64,000 nucleotides of DNA. Source: Candidatus Hydrogenedentota bacterium (GTDB lineage Bacteria > Hydrogenedentota > Hydrogenedentia > Hydrogenedentales > JAEUWI01). Below the pieces are notes generated by a model. That model was not told the DNA's origin, did not search any database, and was given only the letters and a program-made list of their open reading frames with translations. Of this stretch, positions 412 to 31,969 are shown piece after piece. The stretch lies in the NCBI GenBank assembly GCA_034669905.1, contig JAXMOL010000006.1:1-64000 (forward strand), read 5' to 3'. Each line of letters starts with the position of its first letter. Within the stretch, counting starts at the first letter, position 1. The position numbers and the translations under genes are program-made.

Positions 412-2934
412 ATGAAGAAGACCCTGCTGAATCTCATCAGCACGATTCTCCTTGGCAGTATGCTGTTCGCACCCGTGACCTATGCTTCGGAGACCTGGCT
501 TTGGGCGGTGCCCCAGGCAAAGAAGCCGGCCCGCCATCTTGTGATGACGGTAACGCCGTCTTCAGAGACCCGAAACGCGGAGCGGGCGTTTTTTAATTGC
601 GACATCACCAGTGATTTCGGCTATCGGGGTGCTCAGGTCACCCTGGCGGTCCGCGACGAAAAAGGTGCGGTCATCAGCCAGGGCGTACTTCCCCTCGATA
701 TTAGCGCCGGGGCCAATAGCTGCTCCATTACACTGGACACCACCGATCTGCCCCTCGGCAGTTATGAGGCCGAGTTTTCCATTGCCCATACGCTGGTGTT
801 AAGCGAGCCCTCTCATACCTTCACCCTGCGACACGTCCGCGTCGACGATATGAAGTCCCGCCTCGCGGCGAATGAGACCCGGGCCGATGCGTTGGTCCAG
901 GCCCTGAAGGCAGACGGACGTCCCTTTCCGTATCTGCACCTGAAGGCCGCCGCGGCGCAGGATGTGCTTGCGCTGGCCCGTGAAAATGAAGCCCGCGGTG
1001 CCTGGGAGTCCCTGGAAGCCCAACTGCGCTATGTGGAAGAGCGTCTTGACGCGATCCACGCGGGACTGGTCTTCAGCGACGTGACGCGGGAGCAGACCCC
1101 CGATATCGAGATGCCGGAGCTGTCGAATCTGTTGATTCAGGATGGGGCGTTTTATGCGGGAGTCAGGCCCGTGTTTCTCTTTGGCGGGGCGCTGCTCTCG
1201 GGCGACCCGGAAGAGATTGCCCGATTGAACCGGTACCAGCTGCATGCGGCGACCCTCAGCGTTGGGCCCGACGCCAAGCCCGGTACCAGCAATTCGCCCG
1301 AAGCCCTGAAGGCCCGATTCGATGCGGTATTTGATGCGGCTGCCGCACACAACGTGGGTGTGACCATACAACTCAATCCGGAGTTGGTGGTGCGGGATGC
1401 GACCGAGGCGGCCCCTGCCCTGATGGCAGGCAACCGGGCCGACATTACGTCGGAAGCAGCGCTCGCGGCCTGGGAGCGTTATCTGCAAGCGATGGCCCCT
1501 GCCTTGAATGGACGTGCCCACTTGCTGGGTGTCAGCCTCGCCCAGGATCCCCACTTCTACTTTGATGGGGAATCGGTCAAGGCGGGATTCCTCGACTTTA
1601 TACGGGACCACTACCCCGATCGCCTGACCTTGAATCGGGCGTGGCGCTCCCACCTGGCGACCCTGGAGGACATTGAACTCCGCAGTAACAACCCCTATGA
1701 CACCTATCAAAATCACCGTTCTTTCCAGTTCGACTGGCTGACCTATCACCAGCGTCTGGGCAATGGCTATTTTAGCTGGTCGCTCGATCGGGCACGGAGC
1801 CACATGCCGGAAGTGCCCTTTACGGTGACCTTGCCCGCCACGGTTTTCGCGAAGGGTGAGTCGGTCTATGGGGTTGATCGGGAGGTGCTCTCCTCCGCGG
1901 TACAGCTTTCGGCAACGGCGGGTGTGACCGCGTCGACGGATCCCGTTTACGCCATGGCCTACCCGCTGCAGGCGGCCTACAACACGTTGCTGCGCTCCTT
2001 TGCGCCCGGGCAACCCATTCTGAATCTGAACAATGGGTGGGACTTCCCCGCGGAAGCGACGACCCAGGCTACCTATCGCTTTGTGCACAGTGGCGTGTGG
2101 GAAGGGGTCATGTCAGGATTGAGTGGTGCCACGGTGCCTATGGACTCCCTGCTGTTTCAAACGCCGGAGGCCCTCGAGGCCTTTGCCACGGCGGCCCTGG
2201 ACATCAATCGGCTGGCACCCATTGTACTTGCCTTTCAAAATGCCCCCACCGACGTGGGCATCCTGTTCAGTCAGTCTTCTAAAGTCTTTGATCAGGGCGA
2301 TCCCCACCTGAAATCGGCGCTCAACGCCTACGAAGGATCATCGTTCGGCGGTTACAACGTGCGTTTCATTACCGAAGCGCAGTGCAGCGAAGGGGGCTTG
2401 TCTGACGTCAAGATTGTGGTGATTCCCGATACGCCGGCCGTGAGCGATCAGACCTTCCGCGCCCTGAGTGACTACGTGGAGAGCGAAGGAACCGTCGCCC
2501 GGACCGGCGCGCCCATCCCCTACAACGAGCGGGGCTTCTCCCGGGACGACTTGATTCGTAACACCGGGAAGACGGTATTGGTCCGGGGTCTGAATCTCCC
2601 AACCGAATATCTCCACGCCATGGATGCGGCGAGTGTGCTGGGCAGTCTGCCCCAGATTCCGCGGACGATTACGCCCCAGGGGTATCCGCTGGAGGGTGTC
2701 CGTTCCCGCTTTGTGGAGCATGAAGGGGAACAGTATCTCTATGTCATCAACTTGCGCAAGGAACCCGCGTATTGCACCCTGGCGACCCCCACACGGACGG
2801 GCCGGGACCTGATCCACGGGCAGGATGTGACCTTCCCGACGACCCTCGAGCCCCTGGTGCCCATGCTCATCAAATTGAATCCGGTCCATCTGGAAATGAC
2901 CGTGACGGCCTCGGTATCTGACGAAGAATCCTGA
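412..2934 (+). CDS. Secreted GH42 beta-galactosidase-like protein (TIM barrel plus trimerisation domain) with N-terminal extension
   Basis: Signal peptide MKKTLLNLISTILLGSMLFAPVTYA. LNRAW..., FDW...HQ and C-terminal trimerisation-like VGILFS...YNVRFITE...IVVIPDTP segments. ATG 412 follows a GGAAGGA purine-rich element. Confidence 0.6.
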   Translation: MKKTLLNLISTILLGSMLFAPVTYASETWLWAVPQAKKPARHLVMTVTPSSETRNAERAFFNCDITSDFGYRGAQVTLAVRDEKGAVISQGVLPLDISAGANSCSITLDTTDLPLGSYEAEFSIAHTLVLSEPSHTFTLRHVRVDDMKSRLAANETRADALVQALKADGRPFPYLHLKAAAAQDVLALARENEARGAWESLEAQLRYVEERLDAIHAGLVFSDVTREQTPDIEMPELSNLLIQDGAFYAGVRPVFLFGGALLSGDPEEIARLNRYQLHAATLSVGPDAKPGTSNSPEALKARFDAVFDAAAAHNVGVTIQLNPELVVRDATEAAPALMAGNRADITSEAALAAWERYLQAMAPALNGRAHLLGVSLAQDPHFYFDGESVKAGFLDFIRDHYPDRLTLNRAWRSHLATLEDIELRSNNPYDTYQNHRSFQFDWLTYHQRLGNGYFSWSLDRARSHMPEVPFTVTLPATVFAKGESVYGVDREVLSSAVQLSATAGVTASTDPVYAMAYPLQAAYNTLLRSFAPGQPILNLNNGWDFPAEATTQATYRFVHSGVWEGVMSGLSGATVPMDSLLFQTPEALEAFATAALDINRLAPIVLAFQNAPTDVGILFSQSSKVFDQGDPHLKSALNAYEGSSFGGYNVRFITEAQCSEGGLSDVKIVVIPDTPAVSDQTFRALSDYVESEGTVARTGAPIPYNERGFSRDDLIRNTGKTVLVRGLNLPTEYLHAMDAASVLGSLPQIPRTITPQGYPLEGVRSRFVEHEGEQYLYVINLRKEPAYCTLATPTRTGRDLIHGQDVTFPTTLEPLVPMLIKLNPVHLEMTVTASVSDEES

Positions 2935-21444: not shown

Positions 21445-22497
21445 CTATTGCGGAGTCGCCGTCCGGGGTGCGAGCAAGAAGTCGGGGCTTTCGGTTACGA
21501 GGCAGTGGATTCCCGCGCTGGCGAAAACGGGGAAATGGGTGAGCGGGAGGGCGGTGGGCACCACGGCCTCGGCGCCGACGATGGTCTCCAGGACTTCCGC
21601 TACCGCATCATTACCACCGCTGATCACGACCGCTCCTTCGGGGGATTGGACGAGGCTGGTGGCATAGGGCAGGGCGGTGTCTGGAATCCCATGGACCATG
21701 ATGCCCGCTTCATCGCAGATGCGACGAACTACCGCCATCGATTCCGCCGCGTCGAGTGGTGCGTTCAGGGGGCCTGTTCGGTATCCGGGCCCCAGTATCA
21801 GGTGGCAGGTGCCATCCGGTCCACGGACGAGGCCTGCGGCCCGGTCGATGTGGTGGTCGTGAAAAATACCCGACAGGTGACCTTCCTGATCGATGGAGCA
21901 GAAAATTCCGGCGGGTATCTCCACGACCTGCAGACCCCGGTCCCGCAGGCGGTTGAGGACCCCTTGTTCCGGTGCCTCGTTTTTCTCGGGGTGGCGAAAG
22001 ACGATGAGGGTATCTTCACTGAACAGTACCCGCCCGCCTTCGGACCAACAGCTTGGCCAGCAGGAGACGTCCCCACGGTCTCCGACACCGGGTTTGAGCC
22101 AGGTGGGACTGGTCAGGGCGATGCCGTGGGCCGGGAGGTAGACCATCAAATCCCGGGGATAGAGAAAGGTGCTCCCCTCTTCGGGAGCGTCTATTCGAAA
22201 TGCTGGATAGCGGTCGGCGCGCAGTCGATCACTGAGTTCAGACGTTGCGGTGCTGAGATTCAGAATGCGAAAGGGCATGCCTGCGCGGAGGAGTGCGTCG
22301 AGAATCGACAAATACTCCGCATCGAAGCGACGGGTAAATTGGGCTTCATCACCGCTATCCGCGAGAACCGTGCGGGCAGTATCCAGATTTCCCAACAGGA
22401 CCCCCGGCACCTGCCGATTGGCGTGTTGCAGTTTATACTCGGGGAACCCGGTCAACCACAACCGGCCCGCCTGTGTTGACGTCATATCGTGCCCCAC
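21445..22497 (-). CDS. Pentein-superfamily (amidinotransferase / arginine or peptidyl-arginine deiminase-like) enzyme
   Basis: Ordered pentein motifs YPRD, SEGG, HID and C-terminal GIHC (Cys nucleophile). Start is GTG 22497 or ATG 22485. Confidence 0.72.
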   Translation of the reverse strand: MGHDMTSTQAGRLWLTGFPEYKLQHANRQVPGVLLGNLDTARTVLADSGDEAQFTRRFDAEYLSILDALLRAGMPFRILNLSTATSELSDRLRADRYPAFRIDAPEEGSTFLYPRDLMVYLPAHGIALTSPTWLKPGVGDRGDVSCWPSCWSEGGRVLFSEDTLIVFRHPEKNEAPEQGVLNRLRDRGLQVVEIPAGIFCSIDQEGHLSGIFHDHHIDRAAGLVRGPDGTCHLILGPGYRTGPLNAPLDAAESMAVVRRICDEAGIMVHGIPDTALPYATSLVQSPEGAVVISGGNDAVAEVLETIVGAEAVVPTALPLTHFPVFASAGIHCLVTESPDFLLAPRTATPQ

Positions 22498-22520: not shown

Positions 22521-22763
22521 TTACTTCTTGAGCCAGGTATTTGCCCCACCGAGATTATTGATCTTGCGGATATCCCGAATGCCGACTCGAATCCCTGTAC
22601 GCGTAGCCGCCCGTTTACCGATCCGTTCCCCTACCCGTATTCCAATCCGTGCGCCACCCTTGATTTCCGATTCCGGGAGGGCTTGGGTATCCTGATCACT
22701 CACGTCTGCCGCAGCATCCCCCGGCAGGTCATTTACGGATATTTTCTTTGGTTGTTCGCTCAT
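22521..22763 (-). CDS. Double-glycine-leader precursor peptide A (80 aa), Arg-periodic core
   Basis: AAGGAGG RBS. Acidic leader ending EIKGG. Core ARIGIRVGERIGKRAATRTGIRVGIRDIRKINNLGGANTWLKK. Confidence 0.8.
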   Translation of the reverse strand: MSEQPKKISVNDLPGDAAADVSDQDTQALPESEIKGGARIGIRVGERIGKRAATRTGIRVGIRDIRKINNLGGANTWLKK

Positions 22764-23139
22764 GGTGAAGGCCTCCTTACAGCGTTTCCAGTCCGGCAAA
22801 TTGCGCGGACCGATACGGCTTGTTGCTTCAATGTCAAAATACTACCACAGAATTGAGATTTCTGCGTCCGCCGCCTTGGCATGCGCTCAGGGTAGGCCCC
22901 ATCGCATCGAGGGCAGGCCCATGATTGCAGGGGGCGTGCTCTGAAGCAACGTTGGGGGAACTAACTTTGCCGGTCTATGCGGCTGACTGCCCACAGGCGC
23001 TCTTCGTACCGGAATGAGGTCTGCAGAGTATCGTTACAGGACACAAGGGTATTGAAATGAAGTGCGCCCAGACAACCTGGTTCTTGCGGAAATATCGTAA
23101 GTGGTTGTATAAGAAGTGTTTGTAGAGATGGGGGTGTTT

Positions 23140-23155
23140 TGGCACGAGAATCGCT
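23140..23155 (+). promoter_or_regulatory. Sigma54 -24/-12 promoter upstream of peptide B
   Basis: TGGCACGAGAATCGCT with GG-N10-GC spacing, ~40 nt before the peptide ATG. Confidence 0.75.
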
Positions 23156-23192
23156 TTACCATGGCGCAGTCTTAATCATAAGGAGTATCGCT

Positions 23193-23399
23193 ATGAGCAC
23201 TAATAAACAGGATAACGAGATTAAAAACGGGCCAAAGAAACGCGTCATTCGTCTGGATGACCTGGATTCACTGGATGATGTGGTTGGTGGTAGCCAGGGC
23301 AAGCTGCTCTTTGGGGAAGAAGCGGCGCCTCAGAAGTCGCCTTTTGAGGGCGTGTTCAAACCCAACAACGGACGGGGGGGAGCTTCGGGTAAAGCCTGA
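23193..23399 (+). CDS. Double-glycine-leader-like peptide B (68 aa)
   Basis: AAGGAG RBS. PKKRVIRLDDLDSLDDVVGG leader with L(-7) and V(-4). Core SQGKLLFGEEAAPQKSPFEGVFKPNNGRGGASGKA. Confidence 0.7.
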   Translation: MSTNKQDNEIKNGPKKRVIRLDDLDSLDDVVGGSQGKLLFGEEAAPQKSPFEGVFKPNNGRGGASGKA

Positions 23400-23614: not shown

Positions 23615-24706
23615 ATGACCGATGTGGATGTTTCGGCGGAGGTGGAAAGTTTGCCAATCCTCTATCAGCGATGGCTGGCGTCGATTCTGCCCGGGGGCAT
23701 GCCGCGTGAACGGATTGCAACGTGTCTGGATTGTGCCATGTGTGCCCGCACCCGGGAAGAGCATCAGACAATGTTGGGTGCCTATAATCCCGATACCAAG
23801 TGCTGCACGTATTTTCCCAACGTGCCCAACTACCTGGTGGGGCGGGCTATCGATGTGGATACTCCCGGGGCCCGGGTCATGCTCGGCTTCGTGGAATCGG
23901 GCACGACATCCGAAGCAAACGTGACCATGTGTGGGGTCGCGGCGACAGGCAAACGGTCGGCGTTGTATGATCTTGCGGGGCAGGGTGGCGGATTCGGGCG
24001 CGACCCTGATTTGCTCTGTCCCTATGCGATTGCGCGCGATACACAGGAGGGGCCCCTCTGCGGCATATGGGCGCATCGAAATTCCGTGTGCAGCACCTAC
24101 TTCTGCAAGCACGTAAACGGCGGATCGGGGCGCCACCTCTGGACGGCCATTCGGAATCTTTTTCGTCATATCGAGGCCTCCCTTTCCTGGTGGGCCATCG
24201 CCCAATTGATTCCAGAGATGGGTACCCTCATGCTCCGCCCGCCTGGCCAACAAGAAGAGCGCGTCGACAGCGTCCTTTCGCCAACGGCCTGGACCCGTTG
24301 GCCGGGCACGCGGGCCGATTTTTATCGGGCCTGCAGTGAAAAGGTGGAGGCGCTCTCCTGGGAGGAGGTCGTTGCTGTGGTGGGGTTCAAGGCCGCGCTC
24401 TATGTGGAAGAAGTGCACGCGAACTATGACCATGTCTATGGCGAAACCTTCCCCGACCCGCTACGCCCCACGACTTATACGACGATCCAGGCTGGCCATG
24501 AACGTACTACCATACAAGGTGGTGGCAGTGGTGGCAATGAACATGTCGAAGTACCGTCCATCCTGCTGCGCCTGTTGCCCTACTTTGATGGACGGTCCAC
24601 GCAAGAGGTGCTTTCCGACATTAAGGCGCGGGAGCAGGTCGGGCTGGACGTGGCACTGGTGCGCAAATTGTATGATTTTGGCATCCTGGAACGTGCCGAC
24701 GCATAA
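23615..24706 (+). CDS. Cys-rich YkgJ/FliB-like putative Fe-S/Zn protein with C-terminal winged-helix-like segment
   Basis: AGGAGG RBS. CLDCAMC...KCCTYFP...CPY...CGIWAHRNSVCSTYFC. C-terminal LLPYFDGRSTQEVL...LVRKLYDFGILE. Confidence 0.6.
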   Translation: MTDVDVSAEVESLPILYQRWLASILPGGMPRERIATCLDCAMCARTREEHQTMLGAYNPDTKCCTYFPNVPNYLVGRAIDVDTPGARVMLGFVESGTTSEANVTMCGVAATGKRSALYDLAGQGGGFGRDPDLLCPYAIARDTQEGPLCGIWAHRNSVCSTYFCKHVNGGSGRHLWTAIRNLFRHIEASLSWWAIAQLIPEMGTLMLRPPGQQEERVDSVLSPTAWTRWPGTRADFYRACSEKVEALSWEEVVAVVGFKAALYVEEVHANYDHVYGETFPDPLRPTTYTTIQAGHERTTIQGGGSGGNEHVEVPSILLRLLPYFDGRSTQEVLSDIKAREQVGLDVALVRKLYDFGILERADA

Positions 24707-24728: not shown

Positions 24729-25790
24729 ATGAGCCCGCAGAGCAAGGCCACACCATACGACGGGACCTCACCCCCTTCCAGGGGCACCACGTCCAACAGC
24801 GTCTCCATGGAGAAGCTGGACGATTACAGCAGTGCCGATGCGTGCATGAATCGCTGCTTGCACCTGGCAAAGTTGGCGGCACGCACGGACCTCCCTGTCC
24901 TCGTACTTGGCGAATCGGGCACGGGAAAGACCGTCATCGCCCAGGCGATTCACCGATCGTCTGCTCGACATCAGGCGCCCTTCGTATCCTTCAATGCCGC
25001 GGCGTTGAGCGATACGCTGTTGGACAGTCAGTTGTTTGGTCACGAGAAAGGGGCGTTTACGGGGGCCGAGCGGCAGGTGAAGGGAAAGTTTGAGCTCGCT
25101 CACGAGGGAACCCTTTTCTTTGATGAAATAGCGGACCTTTCCTTGACCGGACAGGCCAAGATTCTACGTGCGGTGGAGGGGGGCGAGTTTGAGCGCCTTG
25201 GCGGAGAAGGTCTGCATCGGGCGGATGTACGGCTCATTACGGCGACCTGCCACCCGATTCGGGACTTTGTGGCGGGGCGCCAATTCCGGCGGGATCTGTT
25301 TTATCGGATCAAGGGGATTACTATCACGGTGCCGCCCTTGCGTGACCGCCACAAGGACCTTCCGCGAATGATACGGCGAGAAATCGTCCGGGCGGCCAAT
25401 AGCATGCGTAAGGTCGTGGCGGGCATTGAGGAAGATGCCCTGGAATTGCTCTTGAATCATCCATGGCCCGGCAACCTGCGTGAACTGAAGCAGGTGATTC
25501 AGGTGGCGGTCGCCCTCTCGGAAGGGGATACGATTACCCGCGACGGGGTGATCCTCGATACTTTTGCCTTTGAATCACCACCGGAGGCGCAGGAAAGGGT
25601 GTCTGAGCCGAAGGCCTCGCCATCCCCAACTCCTTCGTCCGCAGAACCCCTGACGCTGGGTGAGATGGAGAAGGCCCATATTGTTGCAGTAATGGACATG
25701 CACAACGGCAATAAGCGTCGCAGTGCCAAGACCTTGGGCGTCAGCCGGTCCACCCTCGACCGTAAACTGCTGCGCTATGGCCTGGAATAG
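24729..25790 (+). CDS. Sigma54-dependent transcriptional activator (bEBP) lacking an N-terminal sensory domain
   Basis: GESGTGKT, LFGHEKGAFTGA, FFDEI, FRRDLFYRI, WPGNLREL, Fis-type HTH (AKTLGVSRSTLDRKL). Only ~30 aa precede the AAA+ domain. AAGGAG RBS. Confidence 0.92.
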   Translation: MSPQSKATPYDGTSPPSRGTTSNSVSMEKLDDYSSADACMNRCLHLAKLAARTDLPVLVLGESGTGKTVIAQAIHRSSARHQAPFVSFNAAALSDTLLDSQLFGHEKGAFTGAERQVKGKFELAHEGTLFFDEIADLSLTGQAKILRAVEGGEFERLGGEGLHRADVRLITATCHPIRDFVAGRQFRRDLFYRIKGITITVPPLRDRHKDLPRMIRREIVRAANSMRKVVAGIEEDALELLLNHPWPGNLRELKQVIQVAVALSEGDTITRDGVILDTFAFESPPEAQERVSEPKASPSPTPSSAEPLTLGEMEKAHIVAVMDMHNGNKRRSAKTLGVSRSTLDRKLLRYGLE

Positions 25791-25924: not shown

Positions 25925-25940
25925 TGGCACAGCGTTTGCG
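25925..25940 (+). promoter_or_regulatory. Sigma54 -24/-12 promoter upstream of peptides C and D
   Basis: TGGCACAGCGTTTGCG: TGGCAC-N5-TTGC consensus with exact GG-N10-GC spacing. Confidence 0.82.
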
Positions 25941-26064: not shown

Positions 26065-26238
26065 ATGGCAACGATTGAAAACAACGATCTGAATGCTGAA
26101 GAGACCCTGAGCGAGGCCCAAGCCAAGGACGTGAAGGGTGGCGTTGCACTGCTGCTGCCCGCCGTGCAATCGGCGCGCGAAGCGGCACGTTCGAAAGACC
26201 CGAGCAGTTCGGTCGAATCCAAATCCGTCCGTCGTTAG
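26065..26238 (+). CDS. Double-glycine-leader precursor peptide C (57 aa), pilin/DUF1559-motif core
   Basis: GGAGG RBS. Leader ...ETLSEAQAKDVKGG. Core VALLLPAVQSAREAARSKDPSSSVESKSVRR. Confidence 0.82.
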   Translation: MATIENNDLNAEETLSEAQAKDVKGGVALLLPAVQSAREAARSKDPSSSVESKSVRR

Positions 26239-26284
26239 TAGCGATAGAACCCATTAACCCGATCAACGAAATGAGGAAGAAGCC

Positions 26285-26509
26285 ATGAGCAAGATCAACA
26301 ATGAAGACCTGAACGAAAAGAAAGACGAGAAGGAAACCCTCTCCGCCGAGGATATGGAGCAGGTGAAGGGTGGCGCTGGGTACTTGAAAATCGGCGATAT
26401 TAAGGGGGAGAGCCTGAAGATTGGCGACATCAAGGGAGAAAGCTTGAAGATTCCCGACATTGCGGGTGAGAGTCAGCGGATCTCCGATGTCACCTTAAAG
26501 CGTGGGTAA
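26285..26509 (+). CDS. Double-glycine-leader precursor peptide D (74 aa), Hcp/tail-tube-motif repeat core
   Basis: GAGGA RBS. Canonical leader ...ETLSAEDMEQVKGG. Core AGY(LKIGDIKGES)2LKIPDIAGESQRISDVTLKRG. Confidence 0.85.
   Translation: MSKINNEDLNEKKDEKETLSAEDMEQVKGGAGYLKIGDIKGESLKIGDIKGESLKIPDIAGESQRISDVTLKRG
26384..26473 (+). repeat. Three 30-nt coding repeats in peptide D
   Basis: ttgaaaatcggcgatattaagggggagagc / ctgaagattggcgacatcaagggagaaagc / ttgaagattcccgacattgcgggtgagagt. Units 1 and 2 differ only synonymously. Confidence 0.9.
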
Positions 26510-26570
26510 TCGGGAGTACCTGACAGGGACGATGCCTGGGTGAGAATCAACTGATTTTTCGGGGTGGGAG

Positions 26571-26606
26571 AGGCGCGATGGGTTACCATCGCGCCTTTGT
26601 GTTTTT
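26571..26606 (+). terminator. Intrinsic terminator after peptides C/D
   Basis: AGGCGCGATGG-GTTA-CCATCGCGCCT followed by TTGTGTTTTT. Confidence 0.8.
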
Positions 26607-26690
26607 GCGACCTGATGTCCTGATGCCCGGTATAGGAACGGACGTTGGCATGATGGCCCGGAAACTCTGCCGACCGCTTTGCGGCCACTG

Positions 26691-27887
26691 TTACCGGGGC
26701 GCCTCCTGGTCACGCATATTTTCCCGGAGACTACGGAGGGGTTCAAAGGCGTATTCGATAAGGGTGCGTCGCCCTACCTGGATTCGGGCTTTGCCACCCA
26801 TGCCCACTCGCAGGAGCTGGTCCGCTCCGAGACGGTCTTTTTCGGGGGTGACATGGGCCACGAAGCGCCCCTGGTCGTTACCGGGCAGGGCGGCGGGACT
26901 CAGCCAGGTCAGTTCACCATTGACCACGCCGAATCGTTGGTACGGGAAGGCTTCAAAAAGCAGTTTCGCCGACTGGCCTTCCCGGAGCTTTGCCATGCTC
27001 CGCTCTTCCAATTGAAGATGGGCGCGGGCCGGCGCATCGGCGGGGGCGATCTGACAGAGCTCTTGCCCCACGGAAACAACGTCACCGGGGCGTTTTCGGG
27101 AGACCGAAAGGATGACCCCGCGATAGGGGGAGCGCACTGCTATAACGTCGTCTGCCACATCCTTCAGGCGCGCGTCGAGCCCTTCGAGTTGCACCGTAAT
27201 TCGAACTTCCTCCAGGGCGATTTCTTCCATCATGTGTTGGTGATCCGCATCCAACCGGGCGAGGGTAAGCTGAGCGGCCTTGAACTGCTCATCGGCCAGT
27301 GCGGCATCGAGCTCGGCCTGGGCCTGTCCGAGTTGCTGTGACAGGAGGTCGACCGTAGAGTTCAGCCCTTCGGCGGTGAGGGCCTTCATACGGTCAGAAA
27401 CATCCTGGTAGACGCTCACATGCTGGATGCGATAGGAAACCTCCCGCTCCCGCTGCTTGATCTCCGCCTCCTGGATGCTGCGGTTAATGGCGTGGGATTC
27501 CATGGCGGCGTCGCGACGCTGGCTGAGGGCCGCCAGGTCTTTTTCGAGGGTGCGCTTTTGGACGGAGAGCTCGAGAATGAGTGGGGACCGAATGGTGAAG
27601 AGCAGGGCGCCGGCCTCAACCTCGCCCCGGGTGCTTGCATAGACCTGGTCGATTACGCCCGCAAAGGGGCTCTGTATCGGGTCGGAGCCGGACTCGGGCA
27701 GCATGATGAAGGGGGCCTCGACGGTTTCCGGCCAATCGATGATGACGGATGCGACGCCCACGGCACCACAGAAAAGGATGATGAGAAAGGCGATGACCCG
27801 CGCGCTACGGAAGGGCATCTCGTAGGGGAATAACTCCGTTACTTTTCCCGCCTTGGGTCGTTCCAGATTGCTTCCGTGGGTGCTCAT
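26691..27887 (-). CDS. HlyD-family type I secretion adaptor
   Basis: N-terminal TM, IQSPFAGVI, coiled coil, RSPYRGVI, FEAFPYQRFGVVNG, RTLIEYAFEPL. Confidence 0.9.
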   Translation of the reverse strand: MSTHGSNLERPKAGKVTELFPYEMPFRSARVIAFLIILFCGAVGVASVIIDWPETVEAPFIMLPESGSDPIQSPFAGVIDQVYASTRGEVEAGALLFTIRSPLILELSVQKRTLEKDLAALSQRRDAAMESHAINRSIQEAEIKQREREVSYRIQHVSVYQDVSDRMKALTAEGLNSTVDLLSQQLGQAQAELDAALADEQFKAAQLTLARLDADHQHMMEEIALEEVRITVQLEGLDARLKDVADDVIAVRSPYRGVILSVSRKRPGDVVSVGQELCQIAPADAPARAHLQLEERSMAKLREGQSAKLLFEAFPYQRFGVVNGELTWLSPAALPGNDQGRFVAHVTPEKDRLGADQLLRVGMGGKARIQVGRRTLIEYAFEPLRSLRENMRDQEAPR

Positions 27888-27890
27888 GGC

Positions 27891-30800
27891 TTAAAAGCCC
27901 CCCTGTTGGCTTTGGAGGTAGAAGTACAGCCCTTTTCGTGCCATGAGTTCCTCGTGGGAACCCATCTCGACCACGGCACCTTTTTCCAGCACCACGATAC
28001 GGTCGGCGTTTCGGATGGTGCTCAGTCGGTGGGCGATGACCACCGCGGAACGGTTGGCCAGAATCTGGTCGAGGTTTTCCTGAATGGCCCGCTCGGATTC
28101 GCTATCCAGGGCGCTGGTGGCTTCGTCAAAAATGAGGATGGGGGGATTGTTGTAGACGGCCCGGGCAATAGCCACCCGCTGTTTCTGGCCGCCGGAAATC
28201 GCAATGCCCGTCTCCCCGACCCGGGTCTCATAGCCCAATGGGAATCGGGCAATAAACTCGTGGGCATTCGCCACGTTGGCGGCCCATGCGGCCCGTTGCA
28301 TATCGGGCTCGGGGTCACCCAGGGCGATGTTTTCGAGAATCGTGCCATCGAAAATGTAGTTGTCTTGCAGCACCAGGCCAATCTGCTGTCGCAGGTCCCG
28401 GTAGTTCAGGGTATTCAAATCAACTCCGTCAAAGTGGAGGGAGCCGGAAGTGGGTTCCAACAGACCGGCAAGCAATTTGATGAGGGTCGTTTTTCCGGAG
28501 CCACTCCGCCCCACGACGGCCACCGTCTTGCCGGGCGGAATCTCCAGGTTGATGTTGTCCAGAATGAGGGGACTGCCCGGGCCACCGTAGTGAAAGGAGA
28601 CTCCCCGTAATTCGACCCGACCTTCCAGGGTGGAGACGGGCTGCAGTCGACTGCGGTCATGGCCCTGCTCCGGCTCAAACTCGAAGATGTCGTTGAGGCG
28701 ATTCATGAGCACGTCCGACATCTGGAACTCGTCCCATAGTCCGAGCACCGTCAGTATGGGGGCGTAGGCCATGGCGACGAGGGCATTGAAGGCGACAAAT
28801 CCACCGATCGTGATCTGGCCTTCCATGACCATGTGGGCGCCAAACCAGAGGAAGAGCACGGTAGACAGATAACCGACCGCCTGAACGGCGCTGTCATAAA
28901 ACATGATCGTAAAGTTGCTTTTGAATTGGGTCTTGGCCAGGCCCAGGAATTCGTTGAGCATGCGGTCCCGAAACTGCTGTTCCCCCGCACTCGCCTTCAC
29001 GGCTTCGATACCCCGAATGGAATCAATCTGGTGCGACTGATAGCGGCCATAGCTCTCTTCCAGGCGATTGAAGAGGGGCCCCAGGACCCGTCGCGAGATG
29101 AACATGAGTCCCACATAGAAGGGCATGGTGGCGAGAAAGACGAGGAGCAATTGGATGCTGTAGACGGCCATTAAACCCAGATAGGCGCCAACCTGAACCA
29201 AGGCCAGGAGGCCCATCAGCCCGCTCTGGACGATGAACTCACGGACCTGCCGTGCGCCGGCCAGACGGCGCTGGATATCGCCGATGCGGCGACTGTTGAA
29301 ATAGCTCATGGGCAGGGCGAGCATGCGGCGTGTCAGGTGATCGAGGATGGCCGCATCAATATGCACGGCCGCAAAACTCAGCATGAAACGCTGAAGCACA
29401 TTGGCGGACAGCATGAAGCCCAGGGCCACGATCATGGCAACCACCATGATGTGCAGGGTTTCCACATCGCCGTCTACGACCACGCGGTCCACGATGACCT
29501 GGGTAAAGACCGGGAGCAGAAGTTGCAGTCCGCTCGTGATGATGGCCAGGAGGAGAATCTGCACCAGGGTGCCGCGGAAAGGTTTGATGAACTGGAAGGT
29601 CCATCCCCAGGTGCGCTGATTCTCCGGTGCCGATTCGAACGACGGCGTGTAGTCCATGAGCGCGGCGTAGCCACTCCATTTTTCCGCGAAAGTCTTTCGC
29701 GGAATGCGCTCGTAGCCTGCGGCCGGGTCAACAATGTAGACATAGCGTTTGGTGACGCGCTCGGCGACGATCCAGTGGTTGCCTTCCCAATGAACGATGG
29801 CGGGCAAGGAAATGGAATCGATACTTTCGGGCTCTACCTTGACGGCGCGGGCGGCGAGTCCCAATTCGTTGGCGGCACCGACAATGGAGCGCAGGCTGGT
29901 GCCATCCAAGGCCGTATGGGCGAGTTGGCGAATACGCGGAAGGCTGACCCGCCGACCATGGTAACGGCAGATCATAGCCAGGGCAGCGGCCCCACAATCC
30001 ATCTCGTCAATCTGGCGAACGTAGGGAACCCGTTTGCCCCAGGCCCGGGCTTTTCGAGTCGCTTTCTTTTTCGTTTTTGCGGTATCGGACGGCGCCTCGG
30101 TGTGGATCCCATCGATATTGAGGGATTCGGAATGGGCGCTCTTCGGCAGGATTTCCTGGGAGAAGTCCAGCGGCACCTTGGCCTCTGTCTGGTAGGTGTA
30201 GGCGGCCATGCGGTCTTCCATGGCCTGGGCGAAGTCGGCGTGGCCGGCCATGAGCGCCTGCAGGGCTTCCCGATTCATGCAGAGCAGGCGGCACTCGGAA
30301 ACACTCTGAACCGTCGCCGTGCGTGGGGTGCCCTGCAGGGCCGATACTTCGCCGAAATAGTCCCCCGCGCGAAGGAAGGCGACATTACGCTCAGCGCCTC
30401 CTTCCGTGACGAAGACCCGGGCGCGGCCCTCTTCGATGATGTAGAAATCGCCGGAGACTTCGCCTTCACGAACGATGGTCTCGTTGGCGGCGACCGACAT
30501 GGGCGAGAGGTGTTCGAGAAAGTCTTGTAATGTGTTGGGGGGTAAGCTCCCGAAGCCCTCGGTGGCCCGTAGGAAGTTGTGAACTTTTCGGTGGCGAATA
30601 CGCAGTTGCTGAAGGTTTCGGAGTTCCGGCGCTTCACCGAGAATGCGGTGAAAATCTACCCGGTCAAGGCGGTAGAGCCGTACGTCACCACTGGCCCGGA
30701 CGGTTGCGGTGCGGGTGCCCTCCTCCAGCAGGGCCATTTCCCCGAATTCATCCCCCGGGCGCAATACGTTCAGGGGAATTTCTTCGCCCGTTTCCCCGCG

Positions 30801-30989
30801 CTTGAAGACCCGTGCCCTTCCTTCGACCAGAATATAATAGGCATCGCCGGGATCCCCTTCACGAACGATAACGTCCCCAAAGGTGTAGGTGACTTCCTTA
30901 CAGGACTCGGCAATACGCTCTCGTGCCTGGGGCGGAAAAAACTCCAGCAGTTCGAGTTTGGCGATGATGTTCAGTTTGTCCTGGGTCAT
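27891..30989 (-). CDS. Peptidase-containing ABC transporter (C39 PCAT) with two N-terminal cNMP-binding domains
   Basis: Two cNMP domains (GDEFGEMAL...RTATV; GDYFGEVSAL...RTATV). C39 QIDEMDCG...HWEGNHW...VDPA with Cys/His/Asp intact. TMD, GRSGSGKTT, ISGGQKQR, FDEATSALD. TGATG overlap with the upstream gene. Confidence 0.95.
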   Translation of the reverse strand: MTQDKLNIIAKLELLEFFPPQARERIAESCKEVTYTFGDVIVREGDPGDAYYILVEGRARVFKRGETGEEIPLNVLRPGDEFGEMALLEEGTRTATVRASGDVRLYRLDRVDFHRILGEAPELRNLQQLRIRHRKVHNFLRATEGFGSLPPNTLQDFLEHLSPMSVAANETIVREGEVSGDFYIIEEGRARVFVTEGGAERNVAFLRAGDYFGEVSALQGTPRTATVQSVSECRLLCMNREALQALMAGHADFAQAMEDRMAAYTYQTEAKVPLDFSQEILPKSAHSESLNIDGIHTEAPSDTAKTKKKATRKARAWGKRVPYVRQIDEMDCGAAALAMICRYHGRRVSLPRIRQLAHTALDGTSLRSIVGAANELGLAARAVKVEPESIDSISLPAIVHWEGNHWIVAERVTKRYVYIVDPAAGYERIPRKTFAEKWSGYAALMDYTPSFESAPENQRTWGWTFQFIKPFRGTLVQILLLAIITSGLQLLLPVFTQVIVDRVVVDGDVETLHIMVVAMIVALGFMLSANVLQRFMLSFAAVHIDAAILDHLTRRMLALPMSYFNSRRIGDIQRRLAGARQVREFIVQSGLMGLLALVQVGAYLGLMAVYSIQLLLVFLATMPFYVGLMFISRRVLGPLFNRLEESYGRYQSHQIDSIRGIEAVKASAGEQQFRDRMLNEFLGLAKTQFKSNFTIMFYDSAVQAVGYLSTVLFLWFGAHMVMEGQITIGGFVAFNALVAMAYAPILTVLGLWDEFQMSDVLMNRLNDIFEFEPEQGHDRSRLQPVSTLEGRVELRGVSFHYGGPGSPLILDNINLEIPPGKTVAVVGRSGSGKTTLIKLLAGLLEPTSGSLHFDGVDLNTLNYRDLRQQIGLVLQDNYIFDGTILENIALGDPEPDMQRAAWAANVANAHEFIARFPLGYETRVGETGIAISGGQKQRVAIARAVYNNPPILIFDEATSALDSESERAIQENLDQILANRSAVVIAHRLSTIRNADRIVVLEKGAVVEMGSHEELMARKGLYFYLQSQQGGF

Positions 30990-31969
30990 CACGATGTGGC
31001 ACCCACCCATTGAATATGCTCGTGGACAAGTGGCCGTATGGCGTCGGTCACGATCCGATCAGAGAGCAGGGAACAGGTGCGTTCGTCCGCGAGGTCGGGC
31101 TCCTTTTTTTCATGGACATACATGAGGATGTGGCGCCCCTCCTGCTCAAAGGGGGGGAGCACACTCCCGGGTGCTGCGGAGAGTGCCGCCGTCTGAAGGG
31201 AGGGGGAGGGGAGCTGATTAAGGAGTACCTCCTGACGCATAAATTCTCCCTTGGCCATTTCACACACCTTCTCCATGGAGAGTCCGTCTTCCGTAATACA
31301 AAGTACTGCTTCTCGCACGGCGGCGTCCGTATCGAAGATGCCGATCTCACAGCGGAGCAGGAAGAAGTTCTGATATTGTACGCGGAGGGCGCTTTTCAAT
31401 CGGGCGGTGCTCAACAGGTCGGTGCGGAATTCTTCATAGCGCTGGCCATAGGCGTTCAGTCGTTCGGGCCACGTGGCAAGATCAGCATCGATGTGGTCTG
31501 CGCCCTTCGACGAGCAGACGATTGCAACGATTTCCGCGAGTTGTTGGCACCATGGTTGGAAGCTGCCGGAGAAAACCAGGTCGGGCCAGAGCACCTCATC
31601 CACGTCTTGTGCAGTGATCGTTTCTGCTGCGGCAGGGCGGGTATGGGCGTTGGACGTGTAGTGTTCACGACAGGCTTCTCGCTCCAGATAGTCGCCAAAG
31701 GCCTCAATAGAAACACCGTGGGCATCCATCCATTCCTGGGTAGCCTGGGCGGAGCGGAGGCCGAGGTCTCTTCGAAAGGCTTCGGAACGGGCCTGCAACA
31801 GGTCGTCTGCCACCTGAAAGCCATCGGCCTGGGCCTGCGCCAGGGCGGACAAACGCTCTCGGGCCTGCAATCGCACCGAATCGAGTTGCCCCCATTCTTC
31901 TGCGGCGGCCAATACGTGTTCGGCGCAAAATACCACGCCGCCACAAGAAAATAGAGAAACACCGCTCAA
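30989..31969 (-). CDS. SurA/PpiC-related chaperone-like protein of the peptide export operon
   Basis: LQARSEAFRRDLGLRSAQATQEWMDAHGVSIEAFGDYLE resembles the N-domain of PpiC-related proteins found beside PCAT/HlyD. Degenerate parvulin-like C-terminus. Translationally coupled to the PCAT. Confidence 0.6.
   Translation of the reverse strand: MSGVSLFSCGGVVFCAEHVLAAAEEWGQLDSVRLQARERLSALAQAQADGFQVADDLLQARSEAFRRDLGLRSAQATQEWMDAHGVSIEAFGDYLEREACREHYTSNAHTRPAAAETITAQDVDEVLWPDLVFSGSFQPWCQQLAEIVAIVCSSKGADHIDADLATWPERLNAYGQRYEEFRTDLLSTARLKSALRVQYQNFFLLRCEIGIFDTDAAVREAVLCITEDGLSMEKVCEMAKGEFMRQEVLLNQLPSPSLQTAALSAAPGSVLPPFEQEGRHILMYVHEKKEPDLADERTCSLLSDRIVTDAIRPLVHEHIQWVGATS

Follow-up and report, generated by a model that had tools for sequence, protein, structure and literature searches.

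A double-glycine peptide with three tandem Hcp boxes as predicted cargo of a peptidase-ABC exporter in a Hydrogenedentota bacterium

Background

Cargo of peptidase-containing ATP-binding cassette (ABC) transporters (PCATs) is usually viewed as consisting of bacteriocins, pheromones or precursors of ribosomally synthesised and post-translationally modified peptides (RiPPs), with cores that are specific for each family. Here we analyse a gene whose product combines the leader of such cargo with a core that resembles Hcp, the tube protein of type VI secretion systems (T6SS). The gene lies at positions 26285 to 26509 (forward strand) of the first 64,000 nucleotides of contig JAXMOL010000006.1 (Candidatus Hydrogenedentota bacterium, assembly GCA_034669905.1), a stretch that is referred to below as the window. 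An original prediction, made from the letters alone, had described the product as a secreted peptide made of signature motifs of Hcp and of tail tubes of phages or extracellular contractile injection systems (eCIS), i.e. as a possible mimic of tube assembly. The exported-type peptide of Hcp motifs stands; the tail-tube part does not, its motif being at chance level and the genus having no gp19-type tube. We conclude that the product is very probably exported PCAT cargo built from Hcp-derived modules.

The double-glycine cargo of PCATs (class II bacteriocins, competence pheromones and peptides of the NHLP/Nif11 type; TIGR01847, TIGR03796/TIGR01193) resembles the locus in the leader, the adjacent C39-ABC exporter, the HlyD adaptor and the occurrence of several paralogous precursors. 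The locus differs in that the core is a tandem tube-protein strand and neither a membrane-active nor a cysteine-bearing bacteriocin, in that the operon holds no immunity gene, and in that the exporter has two cyclic nucleotide monophosphate (cNMP)-binding domains and stays below the TIGR03796 cut-off. By its membership features the peptide nevertheless classifies as double-glycine cargo of a peptidase-ABC exporter, with cleavage being predicted. HetC of Nostoc PCC 7120 has the same combination of cNMP-type domain(s), C39 peptidase and ABC core, but it belongs to the context of heterocyst differentiation and its substrate is not known, whereas here there are two cNMP domains and candidate substrates are encoded next door; the HetC domain is reported to bind guanosine tetraphosphate (ppGpp) in vitro and to be needed for function (PMC10986499). 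The rosaritide MirA-D graspetide cluster likewise has a precursor with a PCAT cut site and a TIGR04500 protein that occurs with a TIGR03796-type exporter (PMC13097080). It differs by its ATP-grasp synthetase, which has no counterpart among the 13 open reading frames (ORFs) scanned here, and the TIGR04500 match of our locus is far below the cut-off.

With respect to the core, Hcp (TssD, PF05638) and the peptide have an N-terminal box of 11-13 residues in common, and other members of the peptide family also share strand beta2, the DKSSPxL motif and the C-terminal strand. Hcp differs in being a beta-sandwich of ~160 residues that is encoded in a T6SS cluster, whereas the peptide core has 44 residues, no predicted fold and a leader for another export route. 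As to the tubes of the T4 gp19/Afp1 type (PF06841), the sequence DVTLKRG resembles the 'N-I-T-L-K-K/R-G' strand of the tubes of the phylum, at chance level.

Results and discussion

The peptide gene and its tandem repeats

The gene and its parts are the following:

26273..26279 (+): ribosome-binding site GAGGAAG, read off the sequence
26285..26374 (+): double-glycine leader of 30 residues (…LSAEDMEQVKGG), read directly, with weak hidden Markov model matches
26375..26509 (+): core of 44 residues and stop codon, from the translation
26384..26473 (+): three tandem 10-residue Hcp boxes (LKIGDIKGES, LKIGDIKGES, LKIPDIAGES), from codon comparison and Hcp profile alignments
26486..26506 (+): C-terminal DVTLKRG, kept in four of five homologues

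On re-reading, the coordinates, the 74-residue peptide, the GG leader and the repeat layout given by the original prediction all proved exact. The 74 codons encode the leader MSKINNEDLNEKKDEKETLSAEDMEQVKGG followed by the core AGYLKIGDIKGESLKIGDIKGESLKIPDIAGESQRISDVTLKRG, which after the GG reads AGY-(LKIGDIKGES)x2-LKIPDIAGES-QRISDVTLKRG. The leader is acidic, ends in V-K-G-G and fits the pattern L-x2-E-x3-V-x-G-G of C39-exporter cargo. It matches ComC of Pfam weakly (13 bits) and the bacteriocin signal TIGR01847 below its cut-off (13 bits, cut-off 15.7), and in a PDB sequence search the leader part of the family profile introduced below aligns to a Nif11 leader ending in ELEAVAGG. A C39 exporter adjoins the gene (see below), which agrees with the predicted exported type of the peptide.

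The first two repeats (26384-26413 and 26414-26443) differ in 7 of their 10 codons, with seven synonymous and no non-synonymous differences; this bears out the statement that they differ only synonymously, and an all-synonymous outcome was reached in none of 200,000 Monte Carlo sets of seven random substitutions. Five homologues of the peptide were found (69-86% identity), four of which (P0001-P0004) retain the three boxes and the C-terminal (D)[IV]TLKRG, while in the fifth (P0005) the boxes are degenerate and TLKRG is absent. The ribosome-binding site, the synonymous-only changes between the repeats and the conserved homologues thus indicate a real gene whose protein sequence is under selection. 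AlphaFold2 modelled the precursor with low confidence (mean predicted local distance difference test of 48 for the core), with a helix at residues 21-29 and without strands or a fold. The core is Gly-rich and hydrophilic (6 K, 2 R, 4 D and 3 E in 44 residues) and has no hydrophobic or membrane-active segment.

Resemblance of the core to Hcp

The proposed comparison with the Pfam profile T6SS_HCP (PF05638) worked out in part: residues 3-15 of the core align, as they should, to profile positions 1-13, with a score (11.1 bits, E 0.5) below the threshold of 23.5. A homologue search with the genome's own Hcp yielded 3 matches, and the set for a local Hcp profile was drawn from genome searches instead (23 Hcp sequences). 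On this local profile the summed score of the core, 9.8 bits, was matched by none of 20,000 composition-preserving shuffles, both stretches of the core falling on profile positions 6-18. The Hcp half of the original prediction hence does better than shuffled sequences, and these shuffles together with the synonymous-only codon changes agree with a core that is an Hcp N-terminal strand under purifying selection. The core's own match remains thin, both on Pfam and for its best single stretch, and the case for an Hcp origin therefore rests on the repeats and on the family.

A six-frame search of the whole 7.44-Mb genome with the box as a regular expression led to four places: the true Hcp, the peptide studied here and two of its paralogues that likewise have a double-glycine leader. 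The Hcp starts with MANAFFLKIDGVTGES; the box of the peptide is similar to it without being a copy, and is nearer to the boxes of peptides from other phyla. When the family profile was searched against the PDB, four of the six sequences at E<=10 were P. aeruginosa Hcp1 (1Y12, 'IKIGDVKGESKDKTHA') and three Hcp1 fusion chains, in keeping with the Hcp1 N-terminal motif given in the original prediction. Judged from these alignments, the box corresponds to strand beta1 of Hcp and the first residues of the beta1-beta2 loop. In the ESM Atlas the nearest clusters, at scores of 0.79-0.82, are short proteins named 'Hcp domain' or 'putative bacteriocin' and count as no more than leads, and a complex prediction of the genome's Hcp with the 44-residue core scored 0.00 with controls not run, which speaks neither for nor against binding. 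The peptide itself was rejected as an Hcp, given the match below the PF05638 threshold, the predicted structure without strands and the lack of a T6SS gene at 19.5-33.4 kb of the window or in the 22 related loci described below.

A phylum-spanning family of Hcp-box peptides

A degenerate DNA pattern (GG-xx-Y-[LIM]-K-[LI]-G-D-I-x-G-E) was run over 185,579 species, one genome each, and recovered 22 loci with 26 peptide genes in Alphaproteobacteria, Acidobacteriota, Hydrogenedentota, Phycisphaerales, Polyangiaceae and Lysobacterales. A family profile (A1) was then built from 30 precursors, with the window peptide as the first row, and searched against 1.84 billion representatives. At E<=0.001 this gave 250 clusters, which have the leader and the box Y[LIM]K[LI]GDIKGE in common, and 36 of them remained at E<=1e-10. 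The search for other GG-leader peptides with the Hcp motif, as suggested in the original prediction, was thus productive, and the motif is conserved in homologous precursors, both in four of the five close homologues and across the 250 clusters. The family can be defined by a leader that ends in G-[GAS] followed within a few residues by [YF][LIM]K[LI]GDIxGE, and the window peptide has these features. The shared box hardly varies between Alphaproteobacteria, Acidobacteriota and Hydrogenedentota.

Architectures were counted in the 150 of the 250 clusters that were listed. Among these matches, 128 are at most 120 residues long and 99 are short peptides in which two residues separate G[GAS] from the box, while 19 are longer proteins with at least two boxes, several with Sec-type signal peptides and one with 15 repeat units. 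The box is followed in 18 of the 150 by 'TDxxHKxWI..LS.S', i.e. Hcp strand beta2, and 10 of the 150 contain the Hcp helix motif 'DKSSPxL'. Some cores go on with 'E.FSLNYEKIRY' or 'GYTEVEWTY', resembling the C-terminal strand of Hcp.

T6SS_HCP was listed for 10 of 25 family cores, always at positions 1-34 or 104-129 (one core of 17 residues was omitted as too short): the L018 core scored 27.9 bits, above the cut-off, at positions 1-26, the L009 core 20.7 bits at positions 1-34, and those of L007, L016 and three of L022 matched positions 104-129. With the local Hcp profile, stretches at i-E<=0.05 were obtained for 48 of the 128 short members; up to 39 members overlap at positions 4-32, and 8 members do so at 116-135. 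In view of these segment matches on Pfam, the local profile and the PDB, the family cores are mosaics of Hcp segments. Their bodies are, on this evidence, assembled from the most conserved segments of Hcp, namely beta1, beta2 ('HKxWI..S.S'), the helix 'DKSSPxL' and the C-terminal strand 'E.vSLNyEKI.w.Y', and the profile matches show that the Hcp resemblance is real at the family level. The window peptide then reads as a variant that repeats the first Hcp segment three times; other multi-box double-glycine peptides exist, e.g. P0011. Neither Pfam nor NCBIfam has a model for Hcp-box peptides, and no published description of such peptides was found in the full text of open-access papers and preprints.

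Several relatives are long proteins with 4-15 tandem Hcp boxes, a number of them with a Sec-type signal (P0009, 936 aa; P0010, 745 aa; P0013, P0015, P0018, P0019 and P0040), and some of the multi-box Sec-secreted relatives have dockerin-like ends. P0009 has 15 repeats of the box plus 'IDKSSxILM' (the Hcp helix motif), and P0010 has before its boxes a stretch with 'KRNITLT…DCFPTSW' that resembles gp19-type tubes. In Falsiroseomonas an Hcp-domain protein (L025, G002:C9, ORF 1420-2289, reverse strand) carries the peptide-type box 'AIYMKYGDIKGT' in place of the usual 'F.KIDGI.GES'.

Such architectures bring to mind a self-assembling extracellular material, in which the exported strand-turn repeats would pack together as beta-sheet fibrils or as a matrix. 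Repeats of 10 residues without an independent fold are compatible with folding on assembly, and so are the Sec-secreted relatives with their many boxes and dockerin-like ends; the window core is, however, highly charged and Gly-rich (see the composition given above), and no amyloid-type accessory gene was found at the locus in Pfam and NCBIfam scans, which together make this explanation very improbable.

The C-terminal TLKRG

The original prediction had named (I/V)TLKRG as a motif of gp19-type tubes, and rightly so, for the gp19-type tubes of the phylum do carry it ('KYPNVVLKRGL', 'KFEDITLEKGV'). Its presence in the peptide as a gp19/Afp component cannot, by contrast, be distinguished from chance. 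On a local profile of 23 gp19-type tubes SDVTLKRG scored -1.0 bits, a value reached by 2,482 of 20,000 shuffles, and although DVTLKRG aligns to 'NITLKKG' of that profile, ~12% of the shuffles do as well; Phage_T4_gp19 (PF06841) was not listed for the peptide at E<=10 in the Pfam scan, and neither the genome nor any of its 8 congeners has a PF06841 gene. We have accordingly rejected the peptide as a gp19-type tail tube. Among the matches listed, 6 of the 128 short family members end in TLK[RLI], which may be a feature of the family in its own right and is not counted here as a tube motif.

The operon, its sigma-54-type promoter and its activator

The signals and genes directly upstream and downstream of the peptide gene are:

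23615..24706 (+): conserved cysteine-rich protein next to the activator, 363 aa from the ATG at 23615, no Pfam or NCBIfam match
24729..25790 (+): sigma-54 enhancer-binding activator, 353 aa, AAA+ and HTH_8 (Sigma54_activat 1.4e-59, HTH_8 6.8e-11)
25925..25940 (+): sigma-54-type promoter-like site TGGCACAGCGTTTGCG, ~125 bp upstream of the first peptide gene, at most 1 mismatch
26065..26238 (+): first peptide gene, with double-glycine leader and core VALLLPAVQSAREAARS resembling a prepilin-type helix segment (translation, match to P0156)
26569..26608 (+): intrinsic terminator with a stem of 13 bp (26569-26598) and then a T-run

The peptide gene is the second of two in an operon that begins with a sigma-54-type promoter, ends with a strong terminator and adjoins the gene of a sigma-54 activator. 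Nothing but the two peptide genes is encoded between these signals, and the operon contains no immunity-like gene. In a scan of the window with TGGCAC-N5-TTGCW, only 3 matches, the site at 25925..25940 among them, have one mismatch or none; at up to two mismatches the number of matches (27 found, 29.8 expected) is not above chance, and the weight of the site thus derives from its position and the adjacent activator. The activator (probable start at 24729, MSPQSK, with an AAGGAG site) has no receiver or sensor domain, and homologues of 339-374 aa adjoin family peptides in the loci L010, L017, L019 and L023. The cysteine-rich protein, possibly its regulator, is 46% identical over 360 residues to the protein that adjoins the activator in L023 (L023:2327-3463); in the ESM Atlas it falls among unnamed clusters, mostly from Myxococcota (score 0.97), with a distant YkgJ-type lead at 0.82.

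These signals also bear on the trivial explanation that we are dealing with a chance ORF or with a functionless, decaying Hcp fragment. In its favour are the shortness of the motif and the lack of a significant Pfam score for the core by itself, but a ribosome-binding site, a promoter-like site and a terminator are present, boxes 1 and 2 are separated by synonymous changes only, orthologues keep the architecture and the family comprises 250 clusters, so that we regard this explanation as practically excluded.

Another sigma-54-type site with 1 mismatch, TGGCACGAGAATCGCT at 23140-23155, coincides with the start of a small ORF (23139-23399, forward strand) that encodes a leader-like sequence …LDDLDSLDDVVGG and a Gly/Lys-rich tail. 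An internal Met (MSTNKQ…) downstream of the site is possibly its true start.

Exporter, adaptor and the genes at related loci

Downstream of the operon, the following genes are encoded on the opposite strand:

26691..27887 (-): HlyD-family periplasmic adaptor (HlyD_3 1.6e-18; TIGR01843 124.7 bits, below cut-off)
27891..31010 (-): C39 peptidase-containing ABC exporter, 1039 aa, with two N-terminal cNMP-binding domains (Pfam/NCBIfam, motif positions)
30989..31969 (-): TIGR04500-like protein (distant; PpiC-related peptide-maturation partner), 326 aa (48.8 bits, cut-off 180, residues 48-103 only)

The exporter matches cNMP_binding (1.5e-49, in 2 stretches), Peptidase_C39 (5.2e-38), ABC_membrane and ABC_tran, its C39 triad is intact (Cys339 in DCG, His412 in NHWIV and Asp428 in VDP), and it scores 549 bits against TIGR03796 (cut-off 853). 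The 326-aa protein has a counterpart next to the cNMP exporter of L006, with 25% identity over 318 residues (E 4e-22). No ATP-grasp enzyme, other maturase or T6SS gene was found among the 13 ORFs scanned at 19.5-33.4 kb with Pfam and/or NCBIfam.

For comparison, the neighbourhoods of the 22 related loci were surveyed (up to 4 kb, 130 ORFs, five best families per protein). An exporter and/or adaptor is present in 8 of them and a sigma-54 activator in 4; a cNMP domain occurs in 4, fused to the C39 exporter in L006, L014 and L019 and as a separate protein beside an ABC transporter in L005. The module is thus found again in other lineages, together with orthologous or related peptides. Methyltransferase genes (L002, L005, L009, L015) or PCMT-like, i.e. 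protein-isoaspartate-methyltransferase-like, genes (L007, L016) were found in 6, which hints that some lineages may modify their peptides. The remaining loci, which are most of the 22, are orphan peptide genes. The six loci with methyltransferase or PCMT-like genes belong to records of Alphaproteobacteria, Paracoccaceae and Pseudomonadota and to one record of Blastocatellia, and three of the flanking S-adenosylmethionine-dependent methyltransferases carry the PF10119 regulatory domain.

The peptide could in this context be a RiPP precursor, in which enzymes from other loci, partnered by the TIGR04500-like protein, would cross-link or methylate the box at its Lys, Asp, Glu and Ser residues. TIGR04500 proteins are described as partners of graspetide synthetases (PMC8939145, PMC13097080), the repeated box abounds in K, D, E and S, like some graspetide cores, and methyltransferase or PCMT-like genes flank family peptides in the six loci mentioned. 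On the other hand, no ATP-grasp enzyme or maturase was found among the 13 window ORFs scanned or among the five best families of each of the 130 ORFs of the related loci, the TIGR04500 match covers 56 residues at 48.8 of the required 180 bits, and most family loci are orphan peptide genes. We consider a RiPP precursor clearly unlikely, and the locus was discarded as a graspetide cluster for want of an ATP-grasp gene (e.g. TIGR04187) among the 13 ORFs and of a sufficient TIGR04500 score.

Pheromones usually differ between species. A signalling peptide, released by a peptidase-exporter under nucleotide control in the way that has been proposed for Nostoc HetC, would have the box merely as its conserved receptor-binding part, its Hcp origin being historical. 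This explanation gains from the HetC-like cNMP-binding domains of the exporter, from the dedicated sigma-54 activator with its conserved cysteine-rich partner, from an operon without immunity-like gene and from hydrophilic cores that lack a membrane-active segment. It is at odds with a box that is nearly invariant across Alphaproteobacteria, Acidobacteriota and Hydrogenedentota; moreover, a linked receptor kinase is lacking, a single genome has several paralogues that differ in their tails, and the Sec-secreted proteins with 4-15 tandem boxes fit poorly. All in all, we judge a pheromone-like role to be unlikely.

A further double-glycine-type peptide is encoded at 22521-22799 (reverse strand), where …ESEIKGG is followed by an arginine-rich repeat, ARIGIRVGERIGKR…TGIRVGIRDIRK. 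Directly beside it, a protein of 350 aa (21445-22497, reverse strand) has no Pfam, NCBIfam or PDB sequence match; the two may form a pair of peptide and modifying enzyme. A tentative pentein/amidinotransferase identity of the 350-aa protein, suggested by its C-terminal 'GIHCLVTE', was dropped, the Pfam, NCBIfam and PDB sequence searches giving no support.

The sister peptide and the paralogues

The sister peptide encoded by the first gene of the operon has 17 residues (GVALLLPAVQSAREAAR) that are identical to the N-terminal region of P0156, a prepilin-type protein (PF07963, N_methyl), in which the shared segment follows the hydrophobic N-terminus. In a six-frame search of the genome, the pilin-type motif occurs only in the sister peptide and in its paralogue on contig C28. 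In Falsiroseomonas sp. (Alphaproteobacteria) the Hcp box and 'GLLLPAVQK' are joined in a single core of 30 residues (L003:3899-4096, forward strand).

The genome holds six Hcp-box peptide genes. Its paralogous double-glycine genes (C3:177568-177780, C38:80855-81257, C47:63321-63750, C28:43650-43847 and C1:240941-241075) are scattered orphans with different tails, some in tandem at contig ends. Five paralogues have the Hcp box, three of these with a GYTEVEWT(Y) tail that resembles the C-terminal strand of Hcp; of the others, one is pilin-type and one has the core YKLKNVVVSS x2.

The copying of conserved N-terminal segments of polymerising subunits hence looks like a theme of this export system. 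In the boldest interpretation, the Hcp-box and prepilin-helix peptides would form a natural class of secreted mimics of subunit segments, i.e. exported copies of the conserved assembly or docking segments of polymerising machines (the T6SS tube, pseudopili), which would jam, titrate or sense such machines in neighbours or in the producers, the three tandem boxes of the window peptide being a multivalent version. It is mainly the sister peptide and L003, both pointing to polymer-subunit segments, that keep this idea alive, and we rate it as quite unlikely.

Co-occurrence with the T6SS

The genome has its own T6SS, with Hcp, TssC and TssE on contig C9, unlinked to the peptide locus. Within the phylum (135 genomes), Hcp is present in 15 genomes and the peptide pattern in 9, and all nine carriers are Hcp-positive, eight of them being from the genus of the window (this genome and 7 of the 8 congeners) and the ninth being G090; G090 is alone among the three genomes of its genus in having either Hcp or the peptide pattern. 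This co-occurrence is no more than suggestive. Outside the phylum, a full Hcp gene was found in 10 of the 18 other carrier genomes and is missing from 8, most of the 18 being metagenome-assembled genomes; one of the 8 is an isolate draft, and in one the Hcp search hits nothing but the genome's own peptide.

Hcp forms its rings and tubes in the cytoplasm, on a baseplate. A mimic of tube or sheath assembly, as had been envisaged originally, would pair with a strand or groove of the Hcp fold or of the sheath and block ring closure, stacking or sheath docking in T6SS, eCIS or phage tails, either in rivals or in the producer's own machine before export. The copied segments are indeed the most conserved ones of Hcp, many family members copy beta1, loop and beta2 together, the sister peptide resembles a pilin helix segment with L003 combining both motifs, and 9 of 9 carriers in the phylum have Hcp. 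According to a tail-tube review, beta1 lies in the outer sheet, beta2 forms the seam between ring subunits by pairing with beta5.2, the beta2-beta3 loop makes most of the ring-to-ring contacts and the beta1-beta2 loop contacts the sheath in the Vibrio T6SS (PMC8718954); competition at the seam of the ring, or where the sheath is touched, is thus conceivable in principle for the family members that have beta1, loop and beta2. The window core, however, copies only beta1 and the first loop residues, not the beta2-beta3 loop of the ring-to-ring contacts, and the peptide is built for export while Hcp polymerises inside the cell; mainly for these reasons we rate a poison of tubes low. A charged peptide of 44 residues furthermore has no evident route into the cytoplasm of a rival, Hcp is missing from 8 of 18 carriers outside the phylum, T6SS linkage was seen in 0 of 22 loci, and the gp19 component is at chance level. 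A tube or sheath mimic is therefore improbable.

Proposed mode of action

The favoured explanation keeps to the known behaviour of double-glycine cargo and peptidase-ABC exporters, from which cleavage, secretion and gating are inferred. The C39 domain would cleave the precursor after Gly30, a nucleotide ligand of the cNMP domains would gate the exporter, and the exporter, together with the adaptor and a putative outer-membrane channel, would expel a linear 44-mer. The mature peptide, without a fold of its own, would act outside the producer by showing three copies of one Hcp epitope to a recognising partner; contact would be made by strand pairing, and the peptide would be a multivalent ligand (a decoy, a competitor-directed agent or a signal) and no tube subunit. 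An action through displayed epitopes is favoured because the core has neither a predicted fold nor a hydrophobic segment. We put this mode of action forward tentatively, its probability falling short of even, whereas the cargo of Hcp-derived modules is, as stated, very probable; weighed jointly, cargo and epitope ligand have a slightly better than even chance of being the right explanation.

Several observations weigh against it. The match of the core to T6SS_HCP is below the gathering cut-off and concerns positions 1-13 of 129 only, and its best single stretch on the local Hcp profile (4.8 bits) was equalled by 28 of 20,000 shuffles. No T6SS family was found within 4 kb in any of the 22 related loci, and the notion that the peptides are generally linked to the T6SS of their producer was rejected in view of the 8 of 18 carriers outside the phylum without Hcp, most of the genomes being metagenome-assembled. 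The co-occurrence within the phylum amounts to about two independent lineages (the genus g1 and G090), and one g1 genome has Hcp without the peptide pattern. Cleavage, export and activity of the peptide, as well as any receptor or partner, are predictions, and given the TIGR04500-like protein and the methyltransferases at six loci we leave open whether the mature product is modified.

Conclusion

Taken together, the peptide belongs to a large, phylum-spanning family whose cores derive from conserved segments of a secretion-machine subunit and are under strong purifying selection. The family gives the cNMP-gated exporters a defined, if predicted, cargo. If the similarity to Hcp reflects only ancestry, it would be a clear case of secreted peptides born from fragments of structural genes. 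If the epitope is functional, nature would have supplied, in these peptides, ligands for the partners that bind Hcp, or else T6SS inhibitors or reporters, and they would provide a testable set of substrates for the HetC-type cNMP-gated exporters.

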